A stretch of 11,969 nucleotides of DNA, from the IMG/VR virus record IMGVR_UViG_2734482785_000020, positions 1-11,969 of that record; one strand, given 5' to 3'. The translations under genes and the position numbers were made by a program. Below, one piece after another: positions 1-11,969 of this stretch; within the stretch, counting starts at the first letter, position 1; each line of letters starts with the position of its first letter. The notes below the pieces were generated by a model. It saw nothing but the letters and a program-made list of their open reading frames with translations. It had not been told where the DNA came from and searched no databases. This DNA comes from a virus. Its lineage: Duplodnaviria > Heunggongvirae > Uroviricota > Caudoviricetes.

Positions 1-147
1 ATGACGCAAATTCCGTTAAAAACCCTGCTACTGTGTTTAACCGCAGTAGCGATAATCTGGATCCTCCACACATCACCTTGTGAGTTGCGATTCAGGTTTG
101 CAGGAACGGAAATTGCGGCATTCTTACAATGTAAGTCTACACAGTAA
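1..147 (+). CDS. hok: Hok/Gef-family type I toxin (small membrane peptide), 48 aa
   Basis: ATG at 1 to TAA at 145-147. Translation MTQIPLKTLLLCLTAVAIIWILHTSPCELRFRFAGTEIAAFLQCKSTQ has an N-terminal hydrophobic helix and the C-E-L-R-F-R ... E-I-A-A-F-L-x-C-K signature recalled from Hok family toxins. It is below the 60-aa cutoff of the ORF track. Any mok/sok partner would lie upstream, outside the window. Confidence 0.75.
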   Translation: MTQIPLKTLLLCLTAVAIIWILHTSPCELRFRFAGTEIAAFLQCKSTQ

Positions 148-155
148 GGAACCGC

Positions 156-179
156 GACGGGGAAGTCAACTTCCCCGTC
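156..179 (+). other. Stable stem-loop in the hok 3' region (10-bp GC-rich stem GACGGGGAAG / CTTCCCCGTC, 4-nt loop)
   Basis: Perfect inverted repeat read directly from the sequence, 9 nt after the hok stop. It has no U-tract, so it is more likely an mRNA-stabilising or fold-back element than a terminator. Confidence 0.5.
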
Positions 180-237
180 AATCGGTTGCCAGGGTAAAGG
201 CCGGAACGGCACCCTATCTGCAGTCATGAACATCACA

Positions 238-270
238 AACCCGCCGTGTAAAAGCTGCGGGTTTTCTTTT
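238..270 (+). terminator. Rho-independent terminator-like hairpin oriented for the + strand (hok transcript)
   Basis: Stem AACCCGC / GCGGGTT with a 12-nt loop, followed by TTTTCTTTT. It lies between the hok stop and the 3' end of the convergent ogr-like gene. Confidence 0.45.
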
Positions 271-281
271 GGCTGGTATCC

Positions 282-536
282 TCAGGCCTGTAGTAGTTCC
301 AGCGCCATTTGCTTTTCCTCCGGGCGCATTCGTTCGATCAACAGCTTCAACACGCCGTTCTCCAGTCCGCTGGGGGTCAGTGTGTGCGAGTAGGTCAGAT
401 TCATCACCCAGGTATGCCCGCACTCAAGACGCTTGCAACGATAATACACGTCAGCAAACCGATCATCTTTCCAGAAGGTCTTTTCAATCACTGCTTGCTC
501 ACCACAGCAAAAACACCGCGCTTTCTGTCTGCGCAC
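282..536 (-). CDS. ogr: Ogr/Delta-family zinc-finger late-gene transcriptional activator (84 aa, GTG start)
   Basis: Cys-x2-Cys ... Cys-x4-Cys arrangement (RCFCCGEQ ... YRCKRLECGHTWV) followed by an aromatic-rich segment, matching the P2 Ogr / P4 Delta fold as recalled. The start codon is GTG at 536-534 with a GGAGG Shine-Dalgarno 7 nt upstream; stop TGA at 282-284. Confidence 0.75.
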   Translation of the reverse strand: MRRQKARCFCCGEQAVIEKTFWKDDRFADVYYRCKRLECGHTWVMNLTYSHTLTPSGLENGVLKLLIERMRPEEKQMALELLQA

Positions 537-686
537 TCCGGCACCTCCTGAATAAACGCTGATTGCTTGACCTGATTTTACTCGTCATCACGGGGGGGGG
601 TAACAGTCATTTCATTCAGTATCACTGTGTTAATTTTGTGTTACTGGTCTAACCAGTGGTTTTTGGGCTCTGTCTCATAATCCGGT

Positions 687-992
687 GGGGGGTGCGCAAG
701 TGGGTCACAAAGGTCACAACAGTCAAAAACAATGCTTAATATCATGATTTAAAAAGGAAATATTTGTGACCTTTTCAAGGTCACAGAAGGTCACACGAGG
801 TCACAGCCTTCAAAAATACCTTAATTATCAATTTGTTATAATTTTAATGTGTGACCTTTAGTGACTTCTCCAAAAGGTTACATGTGACTTTGTTGTGACC
901 CATTTGTGACCTTTAAAATTTACAGCAATATATTGATATATAATATGTTTTTCTATTTGTGACTTTTGTGACCCACTTGCGCACCCCCCCCC
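687..992. repeat. Iteron array (about 13 copies of GGTCACA / TGTGACC) in dyad arrangement with an AT-rich centre, bounded by 32-bp inverted repeats; putative ori/crr-like replication region or recombinase site
   Basis: GGTCACA at 703, 712, 779, 789, 799; TGTGACC or TGTGACT at 765, 850, 883, 894, 905, 958, 967, plus a degenerate copy at 861; spacing 9-11 bp. Left arm 687-718 (GGGGGGTGCGCAAGTGGGTCACAAAGGTCACA) is the reverse complement of 958-992 with one mismatch. AT-rich segments at about 820-848 and 912-957. The array is non-coding and sits immediately 3' of the recombinase and alpha-like genes. Confidence 0.7.
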
Positions 993-1190
993 AAATTTTA
1001 GCGCGACCCCTTAAAATGTTAATTAAACTCACTTGCTCTGTCTCACTCTCGCTAACTCTCTGTGATTGAAATGTATATCGCTACTGTTTGACTCTTTCTG
1101 ATAATTCGGGTGCGAGAGCAAAAAAATTGATGACGGCCACCGCTGCAATATGACCGTCATCGCATTGCTGTTACCGTTGGTTCTGGCCAA

Positions 1191-1218
1191 CAAAAAAGGT
1201 CAGTGGAAAACCGACCTC
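1191..1218 (-). terminator. Weak candidate intrinsic terminator for the alpha-recombinase operon
   Basis: On the minus strand a short stem (AGGTC / GACCT, 11-nt loop) is followed by TTTTTT, about 30 nt downstream of the recombinase stop. The stem is short, so support is weak. Confidence 0.3.
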
Positions 1219-1246
1219 TTTTGCTGCGAATGTAGCGTTCTGTGGG

Positions 1247-2248
1247 TTACTCTGCTGGCTCTTTTTGTTCAGTGAATGCCATATTAGCTATCGGGTTAAA
1301 CCTTATGGCATCCGCCAGATAGTCGGGGGAAAAATGCGCATAAGTCATCGTTTGCTGGATAGTCGCATGTCCAAGAATCCGTTGTAATGTAACGATATTC
1401 CCACCGTTCATCATAAAGTGTGTGGCAAATGTATGACGCATGACATGCGTAGCCTGCCCCTTCGGTAAATCCGGCTTCACCTCCTGAAGGATCTCCCGGA
1501 ACTTCAGATAATCAACCTGATACAACAACCCCGTCCGGCGGGTCTTAATCAGCGGCACGACCGAATCAGCCACAGGAACCGAACGGGATTTTCCGTTTTT
1601 GGTGTTAAAGAACGTCACCCGGTTGCCAATGATGTGCTCTCCACGTAGTTCCGATGCTTCACTCCATCGGGCACCAGTAGAAAGACACAGAATGGCAACA
1701 CAACGCGCATCACCCTCCAGTCGCTCAAGAAGCCGCTCAATCTCATCATCAGAAAGAAAGGCCATCTCTGTATTCTGAATTTTTAGCTTGCGTATACTGC
1801 GCACAGGGTTCGGGTTGTGAAAGACTCCTGCTTCAATCAGCACCGTGAACATGGTAGACAGAACGCACAAGTCACGATTAATGCTGGATGGCATTAAGCC
1901 GGCCTGTAATTTCTCTGATCGATACTCAAGCATAAATTTTTGTGTCATCTGGCTGGCGCGCGGATCTCCCATTTCACGAATCACTTTCTCCAGCCGGATC
2001 CTATAGGTATCGCCGTAAGCCTGGTTACGGCCATCAAGCATCCACCACGTATCAAGCAACTCTGATAATCGCCGGCGATCTGCGGGTTTAGCCAGCCATG
2101 GGTTGTTATGGAAATTCTGTAAAATATGTTTTTCGAAGACCTCTGCACTCCCTTTCCTGACAAAAATTTTCCGTATCCGTTTGCCGTACGCCCCTTGGGG
2201 CCTGATATCGAGCATCCATCGCCCATCATCCATCTTTCTGATCGACAT
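1247..2248 (-). CDS. Tyrosine site-specific recombinase / integrase (333 aa, P2-Int-like size)
   Basis: C-terminal catalytic region HVMRHTFATHFMMNGGNIVTLQRILGHATIQQTMTYAHFSPDYL carries the conserved R, H-x-x-R and terminal Tyr of the phage-integrase fold. The ATG at 2248 lies 2 nt after the alpha-like stop (TAA 2251-2253), with a GGAGG-type Shine-Dalgarno embedded in the alpha 3' end, so the two are translationally coupled. Confidence 0.85.
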   Translation of the reverse strand: MSIRKMDDGRWMLDIRPQGAYGKRIRKIFVRKGSAEVFEKHILQNFHNNPWLAKPADRRRLSELLDTWWMLDGRNQAYGDTYRIRLEKVIREMGDPRASQMTQKFMLEYRSEKLQAGLMPSSINRDLCVLSTMFTVLIEAGVFHNPNPVRSIRKLKIQNTEMAFLSDDEIERLLERLEGDARCVAILCLSTGARWSEASELRGEHIIGNRVTFFNTKNGKSRSVPVADSVVPLIKTRRTGLLYQVDYLKFREILQEVKPDLPKGQATHVMRHTFATHFMMNGGNIVTLQRILGHATIQQTMTYAHFSPDYLADAIRFNPIANMAFTEQKEPAE

Positions 2249-2250
2249 AC

Positions 2251-4920
2251 TTAAGCCCCCTCCTTGTTACTAAATATCCAGCATTTCAGTGTATCCGGCT
2301 CTTTGCTTTCTGCTGCCCCTCTTCCGACATTTGCCTGCCTGGATACCTCGCTACGGACGGTTTTGTACTCAACCAGCGGTCGGGAACGCCCAGACCTGAG
2401 AAGCTCTAACATTTCCGGCTCAGTCCTGATCTCAACGCGGTGAATGGCGGCAGTCTGCCTCAGTTGCGGGATGCTGACGGCGAACCCCTTCCGGTATTCC
2501 TTGCCGAAGTGATTTACGCCGTATTTTGTTGTGCTGTCCAGGTAGTCGAATGCCTCCCAGAACGCTATGACCTCCGGTAAGTCATCCGTCACCGCTTCAG
2601 CCTGCGCTGCTGCCATTTCCTCCAGTTCCCGGCATGTGGCATCAAGCCATTCATCCGGGATATCAATAACGCATTTCAGCGCCCTGACCAGCGCGATAAG
2701 TTGTGCGTGATTTTTGGCGATGCGGGGATGGCGAATATTTTCGCAACCGCAAAGGCGGGTCGTTTCAGGCTCTGAGATCGCCAGAAACATTTCCATAATT
2801 GCCCGTTCGCGGCTGACCGCCCGATGAATAAAGCCTGATACTTCCTCAACGGGGTAGAGTTCCAGCCGTCTCGCCGCCAGTCGGGTATCAGGTGAATGGC
2901 GTTTTTTATCGGTATATATGCGAATCAGTCGCTCAATAATTGCCAGTGAGGCATTTACCCTGGCATTCTGTGCAATCACGATAGCACCCTTAAAATCCGG
3001 GTCGTAGGTGTTGTTATTGTTGGTCTTAACGCCACGAACGCCGATACCACCGCCGTTATAGAGGCTTTTCAGGTTGTCAAAGTCAAACGCGCCTTTTTTC
3101 TGCACCTTGTCCCCCCTGTCAGCCTCAATCAGCACAACGGGCAACCCGGCGACCTGTCCAAAAGTGCGCTTCCAGCCCGCTTCAGAGCCTTTCGTTGGAT
3201 CAACGCCTTCGTAGTTGTCACGACCGCACAGTCGCCAGCAAAAATCAATCAATGTTGATTTGCCCGTTCCGGGCTCTCCGGTGACTTCAAGGAAAGGGAA
3301 AGATTCTGCTTTATCCCGGATTTGCTCACTGAACAGCGAACCCAGCCAGAAAGCCAGGGTAATAATTCCCTTTTCACCAAAAGCCAGCCAGAGATCTTTC
3401 ACCCAGAATTCTGTGAATTCATCCGGTTTTTTATAGTTAATCTGTAATGTTGGTGTTTTACTTAATGGTTTTGCGTTTATGCCATCAATTTCAAAATAAT
3501 CCTCGTCATTGATTTCGTAGGTTTTACCATTACAAACCGCGACATCATTAAACAGCCACGCGCCAATCTCTTTGTTGTATCCGATAAAATCCTGACCAAT
3601 AACCTCTTTTATTGCGGGAAGGTCATTTTTTATTAATGCGTCAAGCTGCGTAGTCGTTCCGGTATAAATACCACCTTTTGCCACATGTAACAGGCGTTTC
3701 TTAAATTCAGATGCGGATGTTAATTGTCCTGATGTAAAAGTATTTTTCACTGTAGTACCATCCGGGAACGTTACACGGAAGTAATACCATGCTTCATCCG
3801 TGTCATTGTTTCGAATGTAATAAAGCGGCGCTGGGTTACAGTTTGCGATTTCTTTTACTGCACCGGATTCCTTAAGTGCAATTTTTCGCGCTTCATCTTC
3901 GTCAACATTTCGCTCATTAATGACACGCTCAACAGCCTTCATATGGCGCTCAATATCCAGCTTGAACCAGAAAACACGGTTATCAAAAGTAAAATGAAAT
4001 TCCTTTCGCTCACGAAAGGAAAACATTATTAGCGCCTTATCTCTTGGAGATTTCGCCAGCAATAAATCACCGTAATAGCGGTATCTTTTCACATCATGGC
4101 CATGCAGCCTTCCGGCGATGTGTAAATCATTCCAGTCGCGTTTATTGCTGTTTTTACCTGGTAATGCTGCCGCCGTTCTCCAGCCGTCTTCGGCGCTGCG
4201 TTCTGCATGTTTTTTCGCGTAACGCTCACCCGCACGCCCGTTATCCAGCGCCCACACGATAACCGGGCGTGGATTATCCCCGCACAGCTTCGCCAGTTCT
4301 TCCAGCGATTTATCAGGGTAGTTCACGGCAGACATGACAGAAACGGCCGCAATGCCATTCTGGTTAAGGCTGATGGCATCAAAGATACCCTCACAAATCC
4401 AGATTTCTTTGGCCTTGCTTAAATCCGCTCCCGGATAAGCCCACCACAGCCCCTTGTAACTGCCGGAAAAATTCGCCTTGCGAGCGAAGCGTTCCGGTCG
4501 GTCTATGATGCGCTCCCACCACACGCCGTCAGCCAGCGTAAAACGCACAGTAGCGGCCTGTTCGCCGCTTTCCTTGTCCTGGTATCGCTCCTGAGTAAAT
4601 GCCCCTTTCAGTGGCTCCACAGCAATATTGCGCGCCTCCTGAAGATAAGCTGCCGCTGCTGCACATGGGTCGTCTTTCGTGCTGATATAGCGATCTGACC
4701 ATGACGAAAACACATCCGGGTAAAGTTCTTTGGTCAGCAGGTCTGTACCGCATTTATTTTCGCGGCCACAGTGTACGATGTACGGCCTCTCAAGACTGGT
4801 AAACAGTTCCTTCTTTCCACATTGCGGACAAACACCATAGCGAAGATAGTTATTTTCTTCTTTAAAGTTGTAATCACGAATAAGACGGTTAATAATCTCT
4901 TTTCTGGTGTTATGTTTCAT
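2251..4920 (-). CDS. P4 alpha-like bifunctional DNA primase / SF3 helicase (about 889 aa)
   Basis: N-terminal zinc-binding motif (CPQCG ... HCGRENKCG), TOPRIM-like EGIFDAISLNQNG, Walker A VTGEPGTGKSTLIDF and a downstream VVLIEADRGD-type acidic motif, then a roughly 250-aa C-terminal extension, as in the iteron-binding domain of P4 alpha. Start placed at ATG 4920 (MKHNTRKEI); the ORF-track start at 4944 lies inside a hairpin and is less likely. Confidence 0.85.
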   Translation of the reverse strand: MKHNTRKEIINRLIRDYNFKEENNYLRYGVCPQCGKKELFTSLERPYIVHCGRENKCGTDLLTKELYPDVFSSWSDRYISTKDDPCAAAAAYLQEARNIAVEPLKGAFTQERYQDKESGEQAATVRFTLADGVWWERIIDRPERFARKANFSGSYKGLWWAYPGADLSKAKEIWICEGIFDAISLNQNGIAAVSVMSAVNYPDKSLEELAKLCGDNPRPVIVWALDNGRAGERYAKKHAERSAEDGWRTAAALPGKNSNKRDWNDLHIAGRLHGHDVKRYRYYGDLLLAKSPRDKALIMFSFRERKEFHFTFDNRVFWFKLDIERHMKAVERVINERNVDEDEARKIALKESGAVKEIANCNPAPLYYIRNNDTDEAWYYFRVTFPDGTTVKNTFTSGQLTSASEFKKRLLHVAKGGIYTGTTTQLDALIKNDLPAIKEVIGQDFIGYNKEIGAWLFNDVAVCNGKTYEINDEDYFEIDGINAKPLSKTPTLQINYKKPDEFTEFWVKDLWLAFGEKGIITLAFWLGSLFSEQIRDKAESFPFLEVTGEPGTGKSTLIDFCWRLCGRDNYEGVDPTKGSEAGWKRTFGQVAGLPVVLIEADRGDKVQKKGAFDFDNLKSLYNGGGIGVRGVKTNNNNTYDPDFKGAIVIAQNARVNASLAIIERLIRIYTDKKRHSPDTRLAARRLELYPVEEVSGFIHRAVSRERAIMEMFLAISEPETTRLCGCENIRHPRIAKNHAQLIALVRALKCVIDIPDEWLDATCRELEEMAAAQAEAVTDDLPEVIAFWEAFDYLDSTTKYGVNHFGKEYRKGFAVSIPQLRQTAAIHRVEIRTEPEMLELLRSGRSRPLVEYKTVRSEVSRQANVGRGAAESKEPDTLKCWIFSNKEGA

Positions 4921-4933
4921 ATATAAATCCCCC

Positions 4934-4963
4934 CCCCACTGCACCTTTTGCAGTGGGGTTTTT
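4934..4963 (+). terminator. Intrinsic-terminator-like hairpin oriented for the + strand, overlapping the alpha translation-initiation region
   Basis: 10-bp stem CCCCACTGCA / TGCAGTGGGG (4934-4943 and 4949-4958), 5-nt loop, then TTTTT (4959-4963); preceded by a C9 tract (4929-4937). On the minus-strand mRNA the same hairpin has no U-tract and partly sequesters the G-rich Shine-Dalgarno of alpha. Confidence 0.45.
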
Positions 4964-4964
4964 A

Positions 4965-5270
4965 TTAATTACTCGTTACTTCTTGTTTCCGGGCAATCCC
5001 TGCGGCTTCAGCCTGACGCCATGAAAAAATGCCGCCAGAAAGATGCATACCTGATTTTATTGATTGTAATTCCCGACTAATAATATTAGACAGAGATGTA
5101 ATATCTTTATTGGTAATTTCTGCACCCACTCCGCAGCTTCTTTCATCAAACATGATAGACATAAGGTTGATGAGATTAATTACATCTGTGAGATCTTCTT
5201 TTGCATCCTCTGTAAAAAAACCAACATATTCTTTATGTAAAAGATTTGCGTAATTCTGATTTTCAGACAT
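4965..5270 (-). CDS. Hypothetical protein (101 aa), AT-rich cargo-like ORF upstream of alpha
   Basis: Uninterrupted 101-codon ORF with GGGGAG about 5 nt upstream of the ATG. The composition is visibly more AT-rich than flanking genes. No recognisable motif. Confidence 0.55.
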   Translation of the reverse strand: MSENQNYANLLHKEYVGFFTEDAKEDLTDVINLINLMSIMFDERSCGVGAEITNKDITSLSNIISRELQSIKSGMHLSGGIFSWRQAEAAGIARKQEVTSN

Positions 5271-5337
5271 AAAAACTCCCCGACCCGTAAAGGTCGAAAT
5301 ATAAATTGAATTCAGTTATCAGTGGATAATTCGGGAA

Positions 5338-5556
5338 TCAGGCGGAAAGCTGCGTCACCTTTAACGCCTTAAAGTGAGTCATTCCCAGCTCTTCCAGCCC
5401 TTCGGCTGCGCGGCGTATGGCTTCGCCCGGTCCCGTTCCGTATACCGTTGCATGTGCATGTTTGGTTAACCCACGTTTATTAACGGCATAACCCAGCACA
5501 AAGAAACGTTTTTCACCGCTGCCATTATTTTTACGGGATGCTGAACGGGTTTTCAT
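5338..5556 (-). CDS. Hypothetical small protein (72 aa)
   Basis: ORF with an AAGGTG Shine-Dalgarno about 6 nt upstream; its ATG overlaps the stop of the upstream 62-aa ORF (ATGA overlap at 5553-5556), indicating translational coupling. Confidence 0.5.
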   Translation of the reverse strand: MKTRSASRKNNGSGEKRFFVLGYAVNKRGLTKHAHATVYGTGPGEAIRRAAEGLEELGMTHFKALKVTQLSA

Positions 5557-5741
5557 TTCTTCACCTTTACCACTGATGCTGTGAGTTCTTCTTCTGGTAA
5601 TTGATATTTCGGCGCAATTTCTTCCGTATACCTGATAGCGTCCCTTGCCGCTTTTCCTTTTGATTTATATTTATATGTGGTCCGGTAGTTTTCTTCCTCT
5701 CCTGTTACCACATTACGCAATTTAATATGAATCTCGTACAT
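5553..5741 (-). CDS. Hypothetical small basic protein (62 aa, MYEIHIKLRN...)
   Basis: Start chosen at ATG 5741 because of a GGAGGGG Shine-Dalgarno 7-8 nt upstream; the longer ORF-track version (to 5870) has no ribosome-binding site and overlaps the neighbouring ORF. Lys/Glu-rich. Confidence 0.45.
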   Translation of the reverse strand: MYEIHIKLRNVVTGEEENYRTTYKYKSKGKAARDAIRYTEEIAPKYQLPEEELTASVVKVKK

Positions 5742-5784
5742 CGTTACCCCTCCATCTCCAGAATGTTTACCGTGCATTTGTGGG

Positions 5785-5931
5785 TTAATTTCCCCGTTCA
5801 TTCGTGCGGCTGTACTCCATGCGGCTGGCAGCACGCAGGGCATCATCACAGGTCTGATATTCCCTGACATGAAAAAACTGACGAACGTCGCCGCTCTGGC
5901 AGTTAATCAGGGTGATAAGGAGCTTAAACAT
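5785..5931 (-). CDS. Hypothetical small protein (48 aa, MFKLLITLINCQSGD...)
   Basis: ATG at 5931 preceded by GGGAGG about 6 nt upstream; the start overlaps the stop of the upstream ORF. Short, so support is limited. Confidence 0.35.
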   Translation of the reverse strand: MFKLLITLINCQSGDVRQFFHVREYQTCDDALRAASRMEYSRTNERGN

Positions 5932-6445
5932 TGCACGCCTCCCGGATACGAATACGGGAAACAAAGACCAGACGGGATGCCGGAAGCAGGGCGCGTGCTT
6001 CGCGCTCACTGGCAGCGGTAACGGTATGAAGGCGAATATTTTTACCGTGGCACTGCATAAAGCGCCAGATAAAATCAGGGCGTGTTGATATAGCCATTTT
6101 GGCGGCTCCTCTTACTGATTTACGGAGTCTCGCCAGCACGCTGCTAAACATGGTGGCGGGACGTAACAGGGTTAGCAGACTGGCGTAAGAGAAACCAGCG
6201 AGCACAAAGGCTCCCCCATTACGCCCCGCCATAATACGGGGTAGGGTGGAATTACGGGCACAAAAAAACCGCATTACGGAAATATAGCGGCTACCCGCTC
6301 TTACAATCAGGCTGCTAAACCCGGCACCTGTTTTCTGAGGCGCGGGCAAACGATACGCCATGACAAAAAAGCGAGTCAAGCAATATTGCAAATTATTTTT
6401 GTGCAATTGCGCTGAGTGATTGATTTCTGTACGTAAAAAGTTCAT
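5924..6445 (-). CDS. Hypothetical protein (about 173 aa), Arg/Ala/Ser-rich
   Basis: Only long ORF in any frame across 5924-6451. ATG at 6445 with GGGA 6 nt upstream (an alternative ATG at 6451). The unusual composition leaves the frame and boundaries uncertain. Confidence 0.4.
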   Translation of the reverse strand: MNFLRTEINHSAQLHKNNLQYCLTRFFVMAYRLPAPQKTGAGFSSLIVRAGSRYISVMRFFCARNSTLPRIMAGRNGGAFVLAGFSYASLLTLLRPATMFSSVLARLRKSVRGAAKMAISTRPDFIWRFMQCHGKNIRLHTVTAASEREARALLPASRLVFVSRIRIREACNV

Positions 6446-6493
6446 AATCATTCCCGAACTGTAGATTCATAGATTTTTCCTTTTGTTGGTGAA

Positions 6494-6519
6494 CGGCCTG
6501 CATCCTGCGGGCCGTTTTT
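6494..6519 (+). terminator. Terminator-like hairpin oriented for the + strand between the capsid-like gene and the small-ORF chain
   Basis: Stem CGGCCTGCA / TGCGGGCCG (one mismatch, 3-nt loop) followed by TTTTT at 6515-6519. On the minus strand it is preceded by an A-tract rather than followed by a U-tract. Confidence 0.35.
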
Positions 6520-6531
6520 CTTATCCAGCTA

Positions 6532-7584
6532 TCACGAATTAAACGTAATCACCCCTTCATCCACCGCCGCATAAAGGTTCACATTCGCCAGTCCATAGCC
6601 CTGATGACGCCATGCCCGCATGTTCAGACGTTTGGTGTCTTCGTTCATGTCGAACTCTGTACGGTAAGAGCCTTCAATGATGTTAATCAGCAGGTTCGAA
6701 AGTGTGGTCACAGCCAGGCGTCCACCCGGCATAAACGGCGGCACAAAGGCAAAATGCCCGGCAATGGTGCTTCCCCATGCGCTGGCGGCTTCGGTGTCTC
6801 CTGCGCCGTTTGCGGTGCTGAAAAGACGCAGACGTTCAGCAGCTGCAAGTTCTGATCCCACCATCACCACAAGGCGCGGATCGTTCTGCCATTGTGCGGG
6901 AATTTTCGTTCTAATCAGATGCTGCGCCAGTGCATCCACCCCCGGAAAATCACCGCCTGCGCCCAGCGTGATGGCATCGCTGATAATCTGTCGCCCTTCG
7001 CTGGTCTTCCTGGCAATTTCATGCCAGCCGGGCGCAACATCCTCGCCGTTCGGGTTGATGTTCGGTGCGGTGAAGGTTGCCGCTGACGTGCCGTTAAAGC
7101 CAATCCGCAGATCATCCAGGTAAATTTTACTGGTCAGATAGCCACACAAAATCCCCAGCAGTGCATCGCGGTTTTTATCGTCATTCACTGCATTGGCCAT
7201 CACAACCAGGTTAATCCAGTCGAGATATTCACATGAGTCCATCTCATAGCATTCAACCGGAGAGCCTTTAATATCCATGGCACGGCTAAAGCGTCCTTCC
7301 TCGGCGCGTCCGGTGGATAAGCGCGCATCCCCAATAAGGTTAATAGCGGACTGATGCGGATTAACTGACAGATATTTTATTTGCCCGGAAAGCCAGTTAG
7401 AGGGGGAAATAAAATGCACAAACGGATTTTTTTGCGTGTATGCGCTGATACGTGCGTAAAGCTCTCTTTCTGCAAGCACGGTATTAATGGCGCTTTCGTT
7501 TTCGTTCATCGCCGGAGATGAAATATTGATACTTTCAAGCACGCTTTCGGCTTTATCTTTCAGTTCATTAATATTAAAAAACAT
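6532..7584 (-). CDS. P2 gpN-family major capsid protein homolog (about 350 aa)
   Basis: Alignment by eye with the recalled P2 gpN sequence: GFNG...V.GW, G.GGD...DAL and DP.LVV.VG..L.A blocks (ours LRIGFNGTS ... VAPGW ... LGAGGDFPGVDALA ... QNDPRLVVMVGSELAA) in the same order and spacing. Start placed at ATG 7584 (MFFNINELKDK) with an AGGGGA Shine-Dalgarno; the ORF-track start at 7656 would overlap the upstream gene by about 60 nt. Confidence 0.65.
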   Translation of the reverse strand: MFFNINELKDKAESVLESINISSPAMNENESAINTVLAERELYARISAYTQKNPFVHFISPSNWLSGQIKYLSVNPHQSAINLIGDARLSTGRAEEGRFSRAMDIKGSPVECYEMDSCEYLDWINLVVMANAVNDDKNRDALLGILCGYLTSKIYLDDLRIGFNGTSAATFTAPNINPNGEDVAPGWHEIARKTSEGRQIISDAITLGAGGDFPGVDALAQHLIRTKIPAQWQNDPRLVVMVGSELAAAERLRLFSTANGAGDTEAASAWGSTIAGHFAFVPPFMPGGRLAVTTLSNLLINIIEGSYRTEFDMNEDTKRLNMRAWRHQGYGLANVNLYAAVDEGVITFNS

Positions 7585-7594
7585 ACATTTCCCC

Positions 7595-8470
7595 TTAAAT
7601 AATATCTTTCTTTTCGGTATGTACAGACAGCAAAGCGGTCGCCGCATCCCGTTCAATTCGTGGCATACTTATTCTGGTATATTCCTGTAACGTCATCGCG
7701 TGGCGAATGGATTCGCTGCCGTTGCTGTAATAATGCTTCGTCAGAGTGCGTAACGCATCATTAATATATTCCTGCCGCAAATGGTTGTATTTAGCCATTA
7801 CTGAATAAGGAATGAATTTGATTTCCTCATTGCGTAAAGTGACGATCGCACTGACTGCCGAAATAATCTCCTTATAAAGATTGATACGGCGATTTGTTTC
7901 CGCCTCCAGTCCGTCAAGCGAAGCGGAAAAAATCCACGCATTATCGCCATCATGAGAAAGATTTTTCCCTGTATTAATAAGGCGTATAGCTTGCTCACAG
8001 GTGGCGCGCGTCTTGCCGCAATTTCGTTTCTCATTTTCAAGCAGATGCGTTTCATGCTCGATAACGTCTTTTACTGAATACCGATCACCATAAGGGTTAT
8101 CAGCACCAGTGGGCTGTAACGGAGTGTTACGCAATTCGCTGATTTTATTTTCCTGAGCAGTCACTTTGTTTTCTGCTTCGCGGATTTTTTGCTGAATTCG
8201 CGCAATGGCAATATCGCAATCTTCCGCAATATCCCGCATTTCTTCATCACTGATTTCATGCACTAATGGCAGGCAATACCCTGTGATATCGCGATATTCC
8301 TCGGCGTGTCTGTGCATGTATTTTGATGCAATGATATCTATCAGGCGAATAACCAGAGAGACTTCAGATTGTCCCTTTTGATATACAAAACTACGGGACC
8401 ACGATGCAATCGTGGTCATTTCCGGGCAGTTTTTAAAAACGGGTGTTAATATCGTGATTGTGTTTTCCAT
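7595..8470 (-). CDS. Hypothetical protein (291 aa), unknown function, with a predicted helical central segment
   Basis: Long ORF with GGAG upstream; stop 10 nt before the capsid-like start. The central segment (IARIQQKIREAENKVTAQENKISELRN) looks coiled-coil-like. No catalytic motif recognised. Confidence 0.6.
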   Translation of the reverse strand: MENTITILTPVFKNCPEMTTIASWSRSFVYQKGQSEVSLVIRLIDIIASKYMHRHAEEYRDITGYCLPLVHEISDEEMRDIAEDCDIAIARIQQKIREAENKVTAQENKISELRNTPLQPTGADNPYGDRYSVKDVIEHETHLLENEKRNCGKTRATCEQAIRLINTGKNLSHDGDNAWIFSASLDGLEAETNRRINLYKEIISAVSAIVTLRNEEIKFIPYSVMAKYNHLRQEYINDALRTLTKHYYSNGSESIRHAMTLQEYTRISMPRIERDAATALLSVHTEKKDII

Positions 8471-8475
8471 AAATG

Positions 8476-8787
8476 TTACTCCGGTAAATCAGTGTCTCTC
8501 TTTTTCTTTTTAGCGTGTTCATGCGGGTTATTTGCTTCGGCAATAGTTGGCGGATTGCGCAACCACCATAAAACATCACTTAACAACCAGGTGCATGAAC
8601 AGCGCCCCAAAGAATGACGGGGAGGAAAAGCGCCGATTTTCTCCAGTTCCCAACGCCGGGAGCGTGAAAGCGTTGTCATCTTTTTACACTTCTCTTCCCT
8701 GATGCGTTCTTCGCAGTCAAAACCATACTCGGCGAGTATGGTGCGACGCTGTTCTGGAGTTGGTGGAATGAATGCGGATTGAGTCAT
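8476..8787 (-). CDS. AlpA-like helix-turn-helix regulator with an N-terminal extension (103 aa)
   Basis: C-terminal half (MTTLSRSRRWELEKIGAFPPRHSLGRCSCTWLLSDVLWWL) fits the AlpA/Xis-type HTH pattern (S.S.....E..G.FP....LG.....W...EV..W). GGGAG Shine-Dalgarno 7 nt upstream of ATG 8787. The roughly 36-aa N-terminal extension is unexplained. Confidence 0.6.
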   Translation of the reverse strand: MTQSAFIPPTPEQRRTILAEYGFDCEERIREEKCKKMTTLSRSRRWELEKIGAFPPRHSLGRCSCTWLLSDVLWWLRNPPTIAEANNPHEHAKKKKRDTDLPE

Positions 8788-8860
8788 GTTTTTCTCCCGT
8801 GCTCTGAACTTTTCGGGGGTTATTTTTCACAAACCGCTCCAATCAGCTCAAGGAGAAGAG

Positions 8861-8894
8861 GGCTAAATTAGCCTACCGGAAGGCTAATTTAGCG
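8861..8894. promoter_or_regulatory. Tandem palindromic operator-like sites (GGCTAAATTAGCC, 8 bp, GGCTAATTTAGCG) upstream of the alpA-like gene
   Basis: Two 13-bp near-palindromes centred 21 bp apart (two helical turns); together they form a 12-bp perfect inverted repeat. They lie in the 121-bp gap between the cargo ORF stop and the alpA-like start and are followed on the + strand by a T-rich run. Confidence 0.45.
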
Positions 8895-8908
8895 TTTAGA
8901 GAATAATT

Positions 8909-9964
8909 TTATCTTTTTAACCAATTGGTTATAGTGTCCTTCGAAATAGTAAATTTCTTTCCATTTTTTTCTGCAATCGCCTCTAGTGCTGTCGCTATCT
9001 TGGTTGGTTGGTCTTTCACGTCACTGAGATACTCACCTATAAGTAAAGCCAAAACATCCCGCATACGGCCAGATACGCGTTCTGACTTAGGTTTTGAGTG
9101 TGTTAATTTGTTGTCTTGGGATGTTGATTTGCTATCAGTCTCTGGAAGGGGGCCAAATGCGGAGGCTCTCCATTTATGAAGATTAGACATAATATAGGAG
9201 CTGTATTTCTTTGTCATTACACCATCACTACCCTCATTATTAATAACACTTTTAATAGTTAAAAAATCTGACTTTGACAGATACAAATCATCAATATCAA
9301 ACTTAATTTCTTTATCAGTTAACAGGCTTACGCTGAAATTACTATCAGGCGCATATATTCTATTGTCTTCACCTGGTTGAATTAACGGGCGAAATTTCCA
9401 TACACTGAAGAAAAAATCGGCATCTAATCCAAAAAAACCATGAACACTAGCATAGTATTTTAAATTTGGTGTAGAGGCATCTATTCCATATCGTGCTAAA
9501 CTTTCTAATTCTCTTTTAAGTGAGTCAGGAAATAATAAAACACTATTCACCACGCAAAAATCATCGCTCACACATAAATTAGTTTTGTAAGTAAAACTTT
9601 GATAAAAATCCCTTACATCCAGATTATCTATTGCAGATATTCCACCTGAACGCCTTTCTATTATATCAACAATGCGCCCGGCAATCTCGCTAAAGTTATT
9701 AAATGACTCATCAAGCCCTAAAAAGACCTCTTTTTCTGACTCATTCAATTCTTGTAAATCGTTAACAAAATCAATTAATTTATCATGCCAGACAAAATTA
9801 TCAGCACAAAATGGTTCAACATAGCAATAACCATCTTCAATCAATATATATAACCTTATATTCCCAGTCATAGCCCAATGAATAAAATCATCAACTGTAC
9901 AACCTAACAACTCCGCAGCCCTTGTTATTGGGTAAAACTCTCTTAGCGGTAATGCCATATTCAT
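8909..9964 (-). CDS. Hypothetical cargo protein (about 351 aa) with N- and C-terminal helix-turn-helix-like segments; AT-rich
   Basis: A 357-codon ORF open from TTG 9982; first ATGs at 9964 and 9958. N-terminus YPITRAAELLGCTVDDFIHWAMTGNI and C-terminus KIATALEAIAEKNGKKFTISKDTITNWLKR both resemble HTH motifs; the middle roughly 200 aa has no recognised motif. The composition is far more AT-rich than the integrase and the backbone, and the gene starts about 15 nt after the integrase stop. Confidence 0.65.
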   Translation of the reverse strand: MNMALPLREFYPITRAAELLGCTVDDFIHWAMTGNIRLYILIEDGYCYVEPFCADNFVWHDKLIDFVNDLQELNESEKEVFLGLDESFNNFSEIAGRIVDIIERRSGGISAIDNLDVRDFYQSFTYKTNLCVSDDFCVVNSVLLFPDSLKRELESLARYGIDASTPNLKYYASVHGFFGLDADFFFSVWKFRPLIQPGEDNRIYAPDSNFSVSLLTDKEIKFDIDDLYLSKSDFLTIKSVINNEGSDGVMTKKYSSYIMSNLHKWRASAFGPLPETDSKSTSQDNKLTHSKPKSERVSGRMRDVLALLIGEYLSDVKDQPTKIATALEAIAEKNGKKFTISKDTITNWLKR

Positions 9965-9978
9965 TCTCGCAAATAAAA

Positions 9979-11181
9979 TCAATCTCTTTTATTCAGTTTT
10001 TCCAGATATTCAAACCAGTCATTTAACGCTTGTAATTTAAAAGGAATATACTGGCTAAGGTTATAGTTAAATTCTGCCGAGCCAGCATTATAAACGTGCC
10101 CTAATAATGACTCGACAATATGAGGCATCACCCCCATATTATTTAGCCCCGTTGAAAATGTTCGTCTTAAATCGTGTAGCGTCCATTTCTCATTATGGCC
10201 AAACATTTTATACATTCGACGACCTTTCAGGGATACGGCTGTGTGTGTTCGTTCTTCCCCTAAAAGCAATCCTGTATCTCCTGTTTTTCCCTTTAAATCT
10301 TTTAACCAACCTCTTATAGCTACAGGTATTGGGCGAACAATTTTTTTACTGTTTTTGCTATTCCCCCGTGGAACTGTCCATTCCCATGAAATGAAATCCC
10401 ACTCACTCCAACGGGAGCGGCGCAACTCTGCCGTTCTGGCACCAAATAAAATCAATAGTTTTATTAGTCGAGAAAAATAAATATCTCCGCGCTCTTCTTT
10501 TCCAAAACGCCAAAGATCTGCTAATTCCCTGTCACTCAACACTCGATCGCGTTGCCCGGCAGCTTCGCCCACATCGCTTAAAGTTAAGTGGGCAAGCGCA
10601 TCGCAAACGGCATAATGCCGAACATTACAGAACCTCAATGCCTGTTTTGCGTGTTGAAACATTCTTCCGGCTGTTTTGGGGCTGATTGCACGTATTTCGT
10701 CAAAGCAGTTAACCCAATACCGCGTATCGCACCGTGATAACGGAAAACTCCCAATTCTGGGGTAAATATGTTTGCACAATTGCGCCCGTATCAGATCTTC
10801 ATCTTTGCGTTTGTGCCTTGCATAGTTAACAAGCCAGTACTCCAGCGCATCCCGAACAGTAACAGGGGTGCGGGTTTCTTCGGTAAAAAGCTGAATCTCA
10901 ATTTTGGGGTTAAGTCCGTTAGCCAACCAGTGGCGGCAGCGTTCCCGCCATTTACGGGCATCTTTCAAACTCATATCAGGATAACGCCCCAACGTTACCC
11001 GATTAAGAGTGCTATCACGCCCACCGAGCCGATATGAAAAAACCCAGCTCACATGCCCTCTTGTGGACAATCTAACCCCCAGCCCTTCACCATCAGCAAT
11101 CATCTCAACATGCTTTCTGGTTGTGCCTGTCAGGGCTTTTAGTTTCCTGTCACTCAGCTTATTAGTTCCAGACACCTTCAT
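9979..11181 (-). CDS. P4-type tyrosine integrase (about 400 aa)
   Basis: N-terminal arm-binding-type domain (GLGVRLSTRGHVSWVFSYRLGGRDSTLNRVTLGRYPDMSLKDARKWRE) and C-terminal catalytic core (LHDLRRTFSTGLNNMGVMPHIVESLLGHV...). Start at ATG 11181 (MKVSGTNK) with GGAG upstream; the ORF-track extension to 11271 has no ribosome-binding site. Confidence 0.85.
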   Translation of the reverse strand: MKVSGTNKLSDRKLKALTGTTRKHVEMIADGEGLGVRLSTRGHVSWVFSYRLGGRDSTLNRVTLGRYPDMSLKDARKWRERCRHWLANGLNPKIEIQLFTEETRTPVTVRDALEYWLVNYARHKRKDEDLIRAQLCKHIYPRIGSFPLSRCDTRYWVNCFDEIRAISPKTAGRMFQHAKQALRFCNVRHYAVCDALAHLTLSDVGEAAGQRDRVLSDRELADLWRFGKEERGDIYFSRLIKLLILFGARTAELRRSRWSEWDFISWEWTVPRGNSKNSKKIVRPIPVAIRGWLKDLKGKTGDTGLLLGEERTHTAVSLKGRRMYKMFGHNEKWTLHDLRRTFSTGLNNMGVMPHIVESLLGHVYNAGSAEFNYNLSQYIPFKLQALNDWFEYLEKLNKRD

Positions 11182-11188
11182 AACTCCA

Positions 11189-11214
11189 ATGTGTATACAC
11201 GTATTGATACACAT
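11189..11214. promoter_or_regulatory. Palindromic element (ATGTGTAT-N10-ATACACAT, containing the perfect palindrome GTGTATACAC) abutting the integrase ribosome-binding site
   Basis: Read directly from the sequence; it sits 8-33 nt upstream of the integrase start codon. Candidate operator or RNA structure controlling integrase expression. Confidence 0.35.
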
Positions 11215-11355
11215 AACATGGTAATACTCAGAAAAACTGAAGTCACCCAAGAACAGAAAATGCTGTAACACAATGGAATTAAATAATTTTTTATACGGAA
11301 CGTGAAAAAGTCAGAAAGGGAGAGAACAAGAAAAACATTACTTCTTGCGTTATTT

Positions 11356-11383
11356 TCGGCACCTTTTATGTAGCGAAGGTGCC
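11356..11383. other. 9-bp inverted repeat CGGCACCTT / AAGGTGCCG with a 10-nt loop in the integrase-upstream intergenic region
   Basis: Perfect inverted repeat in AT-rich intergenic DNA, followed on the + strand by a T-rich stretch. Could be a terminator, an att-associated site or a regulator-binding site. Confidence 0.3.
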
Positions 11384-11670
11384 GGAATATATTCTCTTTT
11401 GTTACTTATTTCTATACCGTGCACAATATTTTTATCCCTCATATTTATAGGGTAAATTACCTGTAAAGTAGTGTCTAATTACCCGCCTCGCAAACTCCAG
11501 TTTTCAAATATCTATTTCAGGTCAAAAGATTGAATTATTCACTGGAGACGATTCGTAAATTCGCTGGATTTTTGACTAAAGTTTCTTTAGGATTTGTCTC
11601 ATCGTATGATTAATTACACCAATCGTTCAACGTCTTGCTGATAAGTGATGGCGATTATATGAGGTTAGCA

Positions 11671-11799
11671 ATGCCTTCTGGAAATCAGGAACCCCGCCGC
11701 GATCCTGAATTAAAACGTAAAGCCTGGCTGGCGGTTTTTCTTGGTTCTGCACTTTTCTGGGTGGTTGTCGCACTGCTGATTTGGAAAGTGTGGGGATAA
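11671..11799 (+). CDS. Small single-pass membrane protein (42 aa)
   Basis: ATG 11671 with GAGG about 7 nt upstream. Translation MPSGNQEPRRDPELKRKAWLAVFLGSALFWVVVALLIWKVWG has a charged N-terminus and one hydrophobic helix. Stop TAA 11797-11799. Confidence 0.5.
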   Translation: MPSGNQEPRRDPELKRKAWLAVFLGSALFWVVVALLIWKVWG

Positions 11800-11801
11800 C
11801 T

Positions 11802-11969
11802 ATGGTCGGTCAGGAGCAACTGGAGTCGTCACCATTATGCCAGCATAGTGACAATGAAACAGAAACGAAACGGGAATGTTCCGTCGTTATTCCAGACGAC
11901 TGGCAACTAACATCGCAGCAGCAAGCCTTTATAGAACTGTTTGCTGAAGATGATCAGCCGAAACAATAA
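11802..11969 (+). CDS. Small acidic protein (55 aa)
   Basis: ATG 11802 lies 2 nt after the upstream stop, with GGGGA 6 nt upstream. Translation MVGQEQLESSPLCQHSDNETETKRECSVVIPDDWQLTSQQQAFIELFAEDDQPKQ; stop TAA at 11967-11969, the window end. Confidence 0.45.
   Translation: MVGQEQLESSPLCQHSDNETETKRECSVVIPDDWQLTSQQQAFIELFAEDDQPKQ

Follow-up and report, generated by a model that had tools for sequence, protein, structure and literature searches.

The stretch of DNA studied here carries a probable P4-like satellite. It is 11,969 nucleotides (nt) long (positions 1 to 11,969 of the IMG/VR virus record IMGVR_UViG_2734482785_000020) and is called the window below; coordinates are window positions unless a locus is named. 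A sequence-only reading of the window had noticed two tyrosine recombinases, and both were recovered with Pfam: a P4-type integrase at the right end and a second enzyme, whose gene we call int2 (1247..2248, - strand; 333 amino acids (aa)). Assignment of int2 to the P2-family tyrosine integrases was based on the open reading frame (ORF), Pfam, a PDB match and an alignment of alleles. Judged by these comparisons, int2 encodes a full heterobivalent integrase of the P2 Int family with its catalytic set undamaged, and its relatives indicate that the satellite lineage acquired the gene from P2-like helper phages and now carries it as a fixed component. Our favoured reading, held tentatively, is that Int2, having no attachment (att) site of its own, acts in trans on the att sites of helper prophages and supplies the integrase for their excision.

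Pfam recognised an Int_N domain (3.8e-29) and a Phage_integrase domain (2.1e-19) in int2. The protein can be divided into an arm-binding domain (aa 1-55, 2248-2084), a core-binding domain (aa 56-160, 2083-1769), a catalytic domain (aa 161-312, 1768-1313) with R194, K217, H268, R271, H294 and Y303, and a satellite-specific tail (aa 313-333, 1312-1250), all encoded on the - strand. Its size is indeed that of P2 Int, as had been stated (333 aa versus 330-337 aa). Comparison with P2 Int (PDB 5c6k) gave E = 5e-92 with all catalytic motifs identical, as compared to 8e-47 for the HP1 integrase and 1e-8 to 1e-12 for the Xer proteins in PDB. In the phage genomes searched, int2 is 56% identical to P2 Int. 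Using tblastn, residues 1-321 were found to be 88% identical to the Int of three P2-like E. coli phages, the alignments running from residue 1 to residues 321-325. All three are prophages inserted between serS and dmsA, where they show the customary gene order int-C-cox, and identity to the Int of P2-like prophages at serS/dmsA is 86-88%. At the DNA level, a prophage int with 87.7% identity to window positions 1321-2211 is present in about 300 E. coli genomes. The six residues listed above are invariant in all satellite and phage sequences, including five satellite allele groups, and the GKR.R..F and D.RP.G motifs are retained.

The sequence-only reading had left the choice between a P2-Int and a Xer-like placement to phylogeny; int2 falls in the P2-Int clade, and its catalytic residues are intact on alignment. 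A Xer or resolvase identity was rejected. int2 has the tyrosine recombinase fold and a conceivable link to replicon maintenance in common with XerC/XerD, which work at dif/cer-type sites of about 28 nt and have no arm-binding domain, but it possesses such a domain and scores far below the NCBIfam cut-offs (XerC, 87.3 bits, cut-off 335; XerD, 86.2 bits, cut-off 329.6). Alignments of the alleles and their flanks contained no resolution site around int2. In length class, three-domain layout and catalytic motifs, int2 resembles P2 Int (PDB 5C6K/5DOR) and the P2-like (Peduoviridae) Ints, especially those of the serS-dmsA prophages of UTI89/ST131. It differs from them in its last 20 or so residues, which are replaced by the satellite tail, and in its surroundings: there is no attP beside the gene and no linked C repressor/Cox switch. 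Its neighbours are the replicase gene and a terminator, whereas the phage loci have int-C-cox. int2 is transcribed with the replicase and P2-like Int with the immunity repressor.

The replicase is an 889-aa Alpha-like Toprim primase-helicase (2251..4920, - strand; ATG as in RefSeq relatives; Toprim_2/Toprim_3 in Pfam). At its junction with int2 (2246..2265, - strand), the int2 Shine-Dalgarno sequence AAGGAGG (2265-2259) falls inside the last replicase codons, and only the dinucleotide GT separates the replicase TAA (2253-2251) from the int2 ATG (2248-2246). The start 2 nt after the stop, and the tight coupling that it implies, had been pointed out from the sequence; both stood up, and the close junction is kept in every relative examined. 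In alleles A, B and D it reads TAA-nn-ATG; in allele C, stop and start overlap as ATGA, and in locus L016, which carries allele A2, the two genes are 9 nt apart. Downstream of int2, RNA folding revealed an intrinsic-terminator-like hairpin (1189..1225, - strand) with a 16-bp stem followed by a U-run (-20.1 kcal/mol, z = -4.7). This structure is retained despite base changes in L001 and L008 and is conserved across all alleles. Overall, int2 is the last gene of the replicase operon, with a terminator common to both genes; the hairpin is the probable counterpart of P4 t-alpha. int2 had been described as abutting the iteron array. This proved incorrect, since about 250 nt (998-1246), terminator hairpin included, lie between the two. 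The part between terminator and array (998..1188) is a conserved spacer: in a 7-locus alignment comprising different int2 alleles, mean column identity was 92% and no allele-specific differences were observed.

Among the satellites, at least five int2 allele groups were distinguished: A, A2, B, C and D. A and A2 are 83% identical, and other pairs of groups only 47-58%. A and A2 are 85-86% identical to the dmsA prophage Int, B is 79-82% identical to the Ints of Chuche and of the pdxB prophage, and C is 87% identical to that of the ppa prophage. All satellite alleles have in common a C-terminal tail (...PDYLADAMRFNPVAN..TE.KEPAE; 76-100% aa identity among alleles) that was found in no phage Int compared. 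It stands in place of the phage int end that encodes the P' arm sites. When L010 (allele A) was compared with L009 (allele C), the 4.8 kb flanking int2 towards the iterons proved 97.6% identical and the flank towards the replicase 94%, while about 780 nt of int2 were non-homologous and could not be aligned. More generally, recombinase alleles that are only about 50% identical are flanked by DNA that is 97-100% identical between satellites. The alignments thus indicate that the int2 body is exchanged repeatedly as a cassette, the satellite C-terminal tail being always retained. Within allele A, the catalytic domain of the window resembles that of the helper (98% aa, 92% nt identity) more than those of the remaining A-type satellites (92% aa, 84% nt).

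Between satellite copies, the ratio of nonsynonymous to synonymous divergence (dN/dS) of int2 is 0.06-0.07 at a dS of about 0.6. It is lowest in the catalytic domain (0.04) and reaches 0.15-0.2 in the satellite tail. Under such purifying selection, int2 is not an inactive remnant. The gene is also regularly present. It was full-length in 17/17 loci examined and directly 3' of the replicase gene in 9/9 close IMG/VR relatives, and its tail was found in all 65 of the E. coli genomes (5426 searched) that possess the satellite DNA downstream of it. In four more remote replicase homologues (41% identity), no int2 follows. A scan of one genome per species, with a sensitivity limited by its word-pattern method, yielded nothing beyond an Escherichia sp. 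and a remotely related Thauera replicase lacking int2.

Helper att sites were derived from the prophages, in whose attP a core is flanked by directly repeated arm sites and the P' pair overlaps the end of int. In the UTI89 serS/dmsA prophage, the core is AAAGCGCCTGCGGGCGCTTT (serS terminator), and arm sites AAGTGTCCATAAACTGTCCATC mark the 3' end of int, a comparable pair lying close to hok. Equivalent TGTCCA/TGCCCA pairs lie within the last int codons of the ppa-site, Chuche and pdxB phages. The TGTCCA arm sites so derived agree with the published P2-type arm consensus, tgTGGaCa (PMC3448106). Neither the helper core with up to three mismatches nor same-strand TGYCCA pairs spaced 8-14 nt were found in the window or in L001, L002, L007 and L009. 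The sequence-only reading had proposed looking for core- and arm-type sites in 687-992; none of P2 type is present there or elsewhere in the window. An inverted repeat at 1128-1165 (GATGACGGCCA...TGACCGTCATC) was considered as a core candidate and set aside, as it is not kept as an inverted repeat in relatives. Comparison of loci of about 9 kb with alleles A, B and C, in which the satellite beyond the replicase is only partly covered, disclosed no allele-specific cis site. Identity in these loci fell below 80% only in the int2 body and, over a short distance, upstream of the replicase gene around L010 position 8400.

Homology to the helper extends to both sides of the missing sites. Using blastn, window positions 1286-2211 match int of the UTI89 serS/dmsA prophage with 86.6% DNA identity over 926 nt, and positions 52-284 (237 nt) match the hok flank of the serS/dmsA prophage (L006 1325-1599) with 76% identity. 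The two matches are colinear with the helper order int...attP...hok, and on both sides homology halts just before the arm sites. It looks as if the terminator, iterons and ogr of the satellite occupy the attP place of a captured int-attP-hok stretch. The sequence-only reading had been reminded of the P2 ogr-attP-int neighbourhood. That likeness holds for the colinearity with P2-like int...attP...hok but not for the Ogr-like gene, which is oriented opposite to P2 ogr relative to int. Overall, the satellite seems to have no core or arm sites of its own for int2, and the idea of a hybrid with a P2-type att module was not borne out, since helper core and paired arm sites are both missing from the satellite.

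The iteron array (679..997; ori/crr-like) consists of AGGTCACA units in both orientations with an AT-rich centre. Exact GGTCACA/TGTGACC motifs number 10 in 703-973 and 11 in the window, as compared to about one expected in the window, and none of 200 shuffles reached that count. The array noted from the sequence is therefore real, as is the Ogr-like gene that follows it downstream of int2 (282..536, - strand; 84 aa), which encodes an Ogr/Delta-like zinc-finger late-gene activator (Pfam Ogr_Delta, 6.1e-11). Inverted arms of 41 nt with G/C runs bound the array at 679-719 and 957-997. Homopolymer runs are found at the array (G9 at 592-600, G6 at 687-692, C9 at 984-992), and their lengths vary among relatives (C11 in L007); slippage-prone tracts are unusual at an origin.

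Three iteron classes, AGGTCACA, CGGTTACA and AGGTTACA, coincide with three classes of replicase C-terminus in 15/15 related loci. The C-terminal 190 or so residues of the replicase are 86-100% identical within a class and 72-81% between classes, and the first 700 or so are mostly at least 90% identical across classes. Each of the three iteron classes was seen beside int2 allele A, and two of them beside allele D. In L016, another replicase family (Zn_Ribbon_Prim/Toprim_3/DUF927) is paired with GGGGAACA iterons, and the int2 that lies 3' of the swapped replicase is 83% identical to that of the window. This locus (L016 4334-8560) is a sister satellite in which the whole replicase and the iterons are swapped with int2, Ogr and Hok still in place; its GGGGAACA units resemble P4 type-1 repeats. 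Because of their co-variation with the replicase C-terminus, the iterons would be replicase binding sites (ori/crr) unrelated to int2, and the C-terminal region of about 190 aa is presumed to bind them. Iterons as Int2 arm sites, or as a P2-type attP, were rejected, since iteron class tracks the replicase independently of the int2 allele. In the P4 annotation, alpha is followed by t-alpha, crr (with type-1 repeats in both orientations), attP and int. The window order is replicase, int2, terminator and iterons, which makes the array a positional analogue of P4 crr. Differences from P4 are that an integrase gene is inserted between replicase and terminator, that the array is one AGGTCACA block with long inverted arms, and that the window replicase is only distantly related to P4 alpha (Toprim_2/3 matches only). 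Loci of the three classes include L021, L023 and L027 (IMG/VR); such natural replicase/iteron classes are a ready data set for mapping iteron recognition.

Co-residence with helper prophages was searched for with a chimeric query made of satellite-specific DNA joined to the int tail and P' arm of the dmsA prophage. A dmsA-type attL was found in 7-8/21 genomes with an A-type satellite, in 3/39 with other alleles and in 345/5361 without a satellite (Fisher p = 0.011 and 3e-5); when clones were collapsed, the count became 5/12 (p = 6e-4). These counts rest on the chimeric query and on one verified example, STEC316, in which the match is a P2-like prophage int beside dmsA. ETEC4077, which has an A-type satellite, also harbours a Chuche-type P2-like prophage at pdxB, 63 kb away. 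The int gene of this prophage (L033 3255-4259; chromosome 1663254-1664258) encodes the counterpart of allele B (79%). One strain can thus hold several potential helpers with different integrase types.

P2-like prophages are poorly excised since Int is limiting. In our favoured reading, Int2 would be made when the replication operon of the satellite is switched on and would work in trans on the att sites of the helper. In its simplest form, it would provide the integrase for Cox-dependent attL x attR excision of the resident P2-like prophage, and helper excision would thereby come under satellite control. Action on helper att sites is suggested because the enzyme is conserved, under purifying selection, helper-matched and without a cis site. 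Helper excision is favoured because the only ready substrate at that time would be attL x attR of the resident prophage. The P4 late promoter from which the alpha operon is transcribed is activated by P2 Cox, which also serves as the directionality factor of excision (PMC3936717). The broader proposition is possible but somewhat more doubtful: that the satellite keeps an att-less helper integrase, swaps it to match the P2-like helper at hand, co-expresses it with the replicase and so controls helper excision, either by turning it on in P2-like prophages that are otherwise non-inducible or by keeping these locked in the chromosome.

Several points weigh against the trans-excision reading. About 13 of the 21 A-type satellite genomes have no matching helper prophage, and the strains counted are not phylogenetically independent. 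Functional matching would produce the co-residence enrichment, but so, to the same extent, would mere copying of the allele from a helper already resident. For allele D, the collections searched contained no close counterpart in phages, and in its arm-binding domain allele A shares only 67% identity with the dmsA prophage Int (dN 0.25). Part of the low dN/dS may date from the time before the sequences left phages, and with the C-terminal tail replaced, normal regulation of the tetramer could be altered or lost. Helper excision is no requirement for classical P4 to exploit P2. The trans-acting step of int2 itself is purely inferred.

Int2 might instead be directed against the helper, as a helper-mimicking subunit that blocks or misdirects its excision or integration via core sites or by co-assembly. 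The helper genome would then be kept out of capsids while helper late genes still served the satellite. Interference with the helper is the rule among satellites, and helper matching, cassette exchange and the lack of a cis site would suit this role, as would a tail common to all satellite alleles and unlike that of every phage Int. The N-terminal domain of allele A has diverged from the dmsA prophage Int, with the dN of 0.25 given above as compared to 0.015 in the catalytic domain. However, a pure poison subunit needs no catalytic residues, whereas R/K/HxxR/H/Y are invariant and dN/dS is lowest in the catalytic domain. In addition, the arm-binding domains of alleles A2 and C are still helper-like. 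We consider interference unlikely. The same can be said of int2 as a passenger with no role, that is, a captured helper int kept intact by repeated gene conversion from resident prophages. Its mosaic structure and helper-like stretches do point to frequent recombination with helper int genes, for which co-resident matching helpers provide donors. Against this, int2 is full-length in every locus examined, its tail accompanies the satellite in 65/65 genomes, and it was retained through replacement of replicase and iterons. The Shine-Dalgarno sequence and the close spacing are maintained. The tail cannot be refreshed from phages, yet it is conserved, and the allele C breakpoint falls in the last replicase codons, where there is no homology to help.

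The remaining explanations would give Int2 a substrate within the satellite. As a second autonomous integration module, it would insert the satellite at a second chromosomal site via an attP in or near 540-1246. A complete integrase with an arm-binding domain and the colinearity of int2 and the hok flank with int-attP-hok would agree with this, but helper homology ends short of the arm sites, and neither helper core nor paired TGYCCA sites were found. Moreover, alleles with core-binding domains about 50% identical do not differ in the DNA that runs from the int2 tail to the iterons, and the known ends of the element point to the P4-type integrase (see below). Such a module is improbable. Multimer resolution or replication-linked recombination, proposed in the sequence-only reading from the coupling of a recombinase to the replication protein, would have Int2 act at a site in 679-997 to resolve multimers, whether of a plasmid or replicative. 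The coupling is tight, the array is nearby, and persistence as a plasmid is possible for P4-type elements. int2, however, is not Xer-like, and its clade needs arm sites (PMC3448106). Iteron class follows the replicase C-terminus in all 15 loci, with allele A occurring beside each class, and where the replicase is of another family, the iterons change too but int2 stays similar. A terminator separates gene and array, and the flanks are the same across alleles, none co-varying with the allele. We therefore hold resolution at the iterons to be highly improbable. Finally, Int2 could be an invertase flipping the segment between the 41-nt inverted arms, in the manner of the fimS switch. The arms are near-perfect inverted repeats, they enclose about 240 nt of AT-rich DNA with promoter-like hexamers, and a recombinase gene adjoins them. 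Yet the orientation of the segment relative to int2 is constant in 17/17 loci, and the arms consist of replicase iterons and differ from one replicase to another, which leaves inversion with hardly any credibility.

Int2 is a known kind of enzyme whose setting is unusual, conserved and open to experiment. The satellite literature searched contained no account of a helper-type second integrase that is conserved. Between primase and att site, a survey of P2/P4 hotspots from 2026 lists no more than a minor defence hotspot. Satellite-detection pipelines keep one integrase per element and drop extras (PMC10085698, PMC8628076), and for this reason a conserved second integrase would go unnoticed. A parallel is offered by PLE and ICP1, which resemble the present case in that recombination components are common to, or borrowed between, satellite and helper. 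The V. cholerae PLE uses ICP1 PexA as excision factor. There, a helper protein steers the satellite integrase, whereas here the satellite carries a helper-type integrase without a site. If Int2 acts on the att sites of the helper, site-specific recombination would join derepression, late-gene activation and capsid resizing as a satellite way to manipulate helpers. It would be a previously undescribed layer of satellite-helper manipulation and could explain how satellites cope with poorly excising P2-like prophages. In any case, allele swapping illustrates cleanly, in nature, how a parasite and its host virus exchange a cassette. The system can be tested directly, because cognate att sites, namely the serS terminator core and the TGTCCA arm sites, have been identified along with natural strains with both partners, among them TOE17, P15-25, A36 and ETEC4077.

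The genes of the element are all on the - strand of the window, with Hok/Gef on the + strand, according to the ORF list. The satellite's own integration enzyme is the P4-type integrase (9979..11181, - strand; 400 aa from the RefSeq start). The corresponding ORF, 9979-11271, encodes Arm-DNA-bind_3 and Phage_integrase domains in Pfam, a P4-type architecture. This enzyme belongs to another family than int2, which has a P2-type N-terminal arm-binding region instead of Arm-DNA-bind_3 and lies about 8 kb away. Together with AlpA (Vis; 8476..8787, - strand), it forms the Int/Vis module also known from P4.

At the right end of the element, the satellite match stops at 11345 and the chromosomal match begins at 11332, in the E. 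coli cysB-ymiA region. The overlap of these two matches defines a junction or core, AAAACATTACTTCT (11332..11345), common to satellite end and chromosome, and places the element end at about 11345. The closest complete E. coli relative, in STEC313, is 94% identical, and the P4-type integrases of the two elements are 99.2% identical. The STEC313 element sits between hpt and gcd, with direct repeats at its borders (L001 4404-4427 and 17345-17368). Because the window junction lies beside the P4-type integrase and the STEC313 direct repeats start at that same end, the P4-type enzyme accounts for chromosomal integration. The cysB-ymiA and hpt-gcd insertion sites have only AAAACATTACTTCT in common at the junction, and a single P4-type integrase appears, from these borders, to use two attB sites.

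The P4-like satellite markers Int, AlpA, Ogr/Delta and Toprim replicase were all detected with Pfam. No Pfam match to Psu was obtained among the six accessory ORFs scanned, which lie outside the presumed epsilon position, and Sid has no Pfam model. An Icd-like gene is carried by RefSeq relatives. A homologue of the P2-family major capsid protein is encoded at 6532..7656 (- strand; Pfam 5e-43, NCBIfam 2e-40). Its NCBIfam score is below the equivalog cut-off, and its identity to gpN of a P2-like prophage is just 26%. Capsid hijacking may differ here from that of P4.

An ORF of 291 aa (7595..8470, - strand) with no assigned function precedes the capsid homologue gene, and small ORFs lie between the latter and the replicase gene. 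Between AlpA and the P4-type integrase, a second ORF with no assigned function (8909..9982, - strand; 357 aa, about 33% GC) occupies the position of a known P4 defence hotspot. It had no match in Pfam, NCBIfam or PADLOC, and PADLOC returned no defence-system match for int2 or for the neighbouring unassigned ORFs. At the left end, the Hok/Gef toxin gene (1-147) and its 3' flank (1..284, + strand) were assigned from the RefSeq annotation of a relative and from blastn/tblastn comparison with the helper prophage. A second architecture was observed in L002, L008-L010 and L015, in which the region left of the iterons lacks the arrangement of Hok and 84-aa Ogr. From the iterons to the left end, these loci carry instead a capsid homologue, two unassigned ORFs, a 60-aa Ogr and a MazEF toxin-antitoxin.

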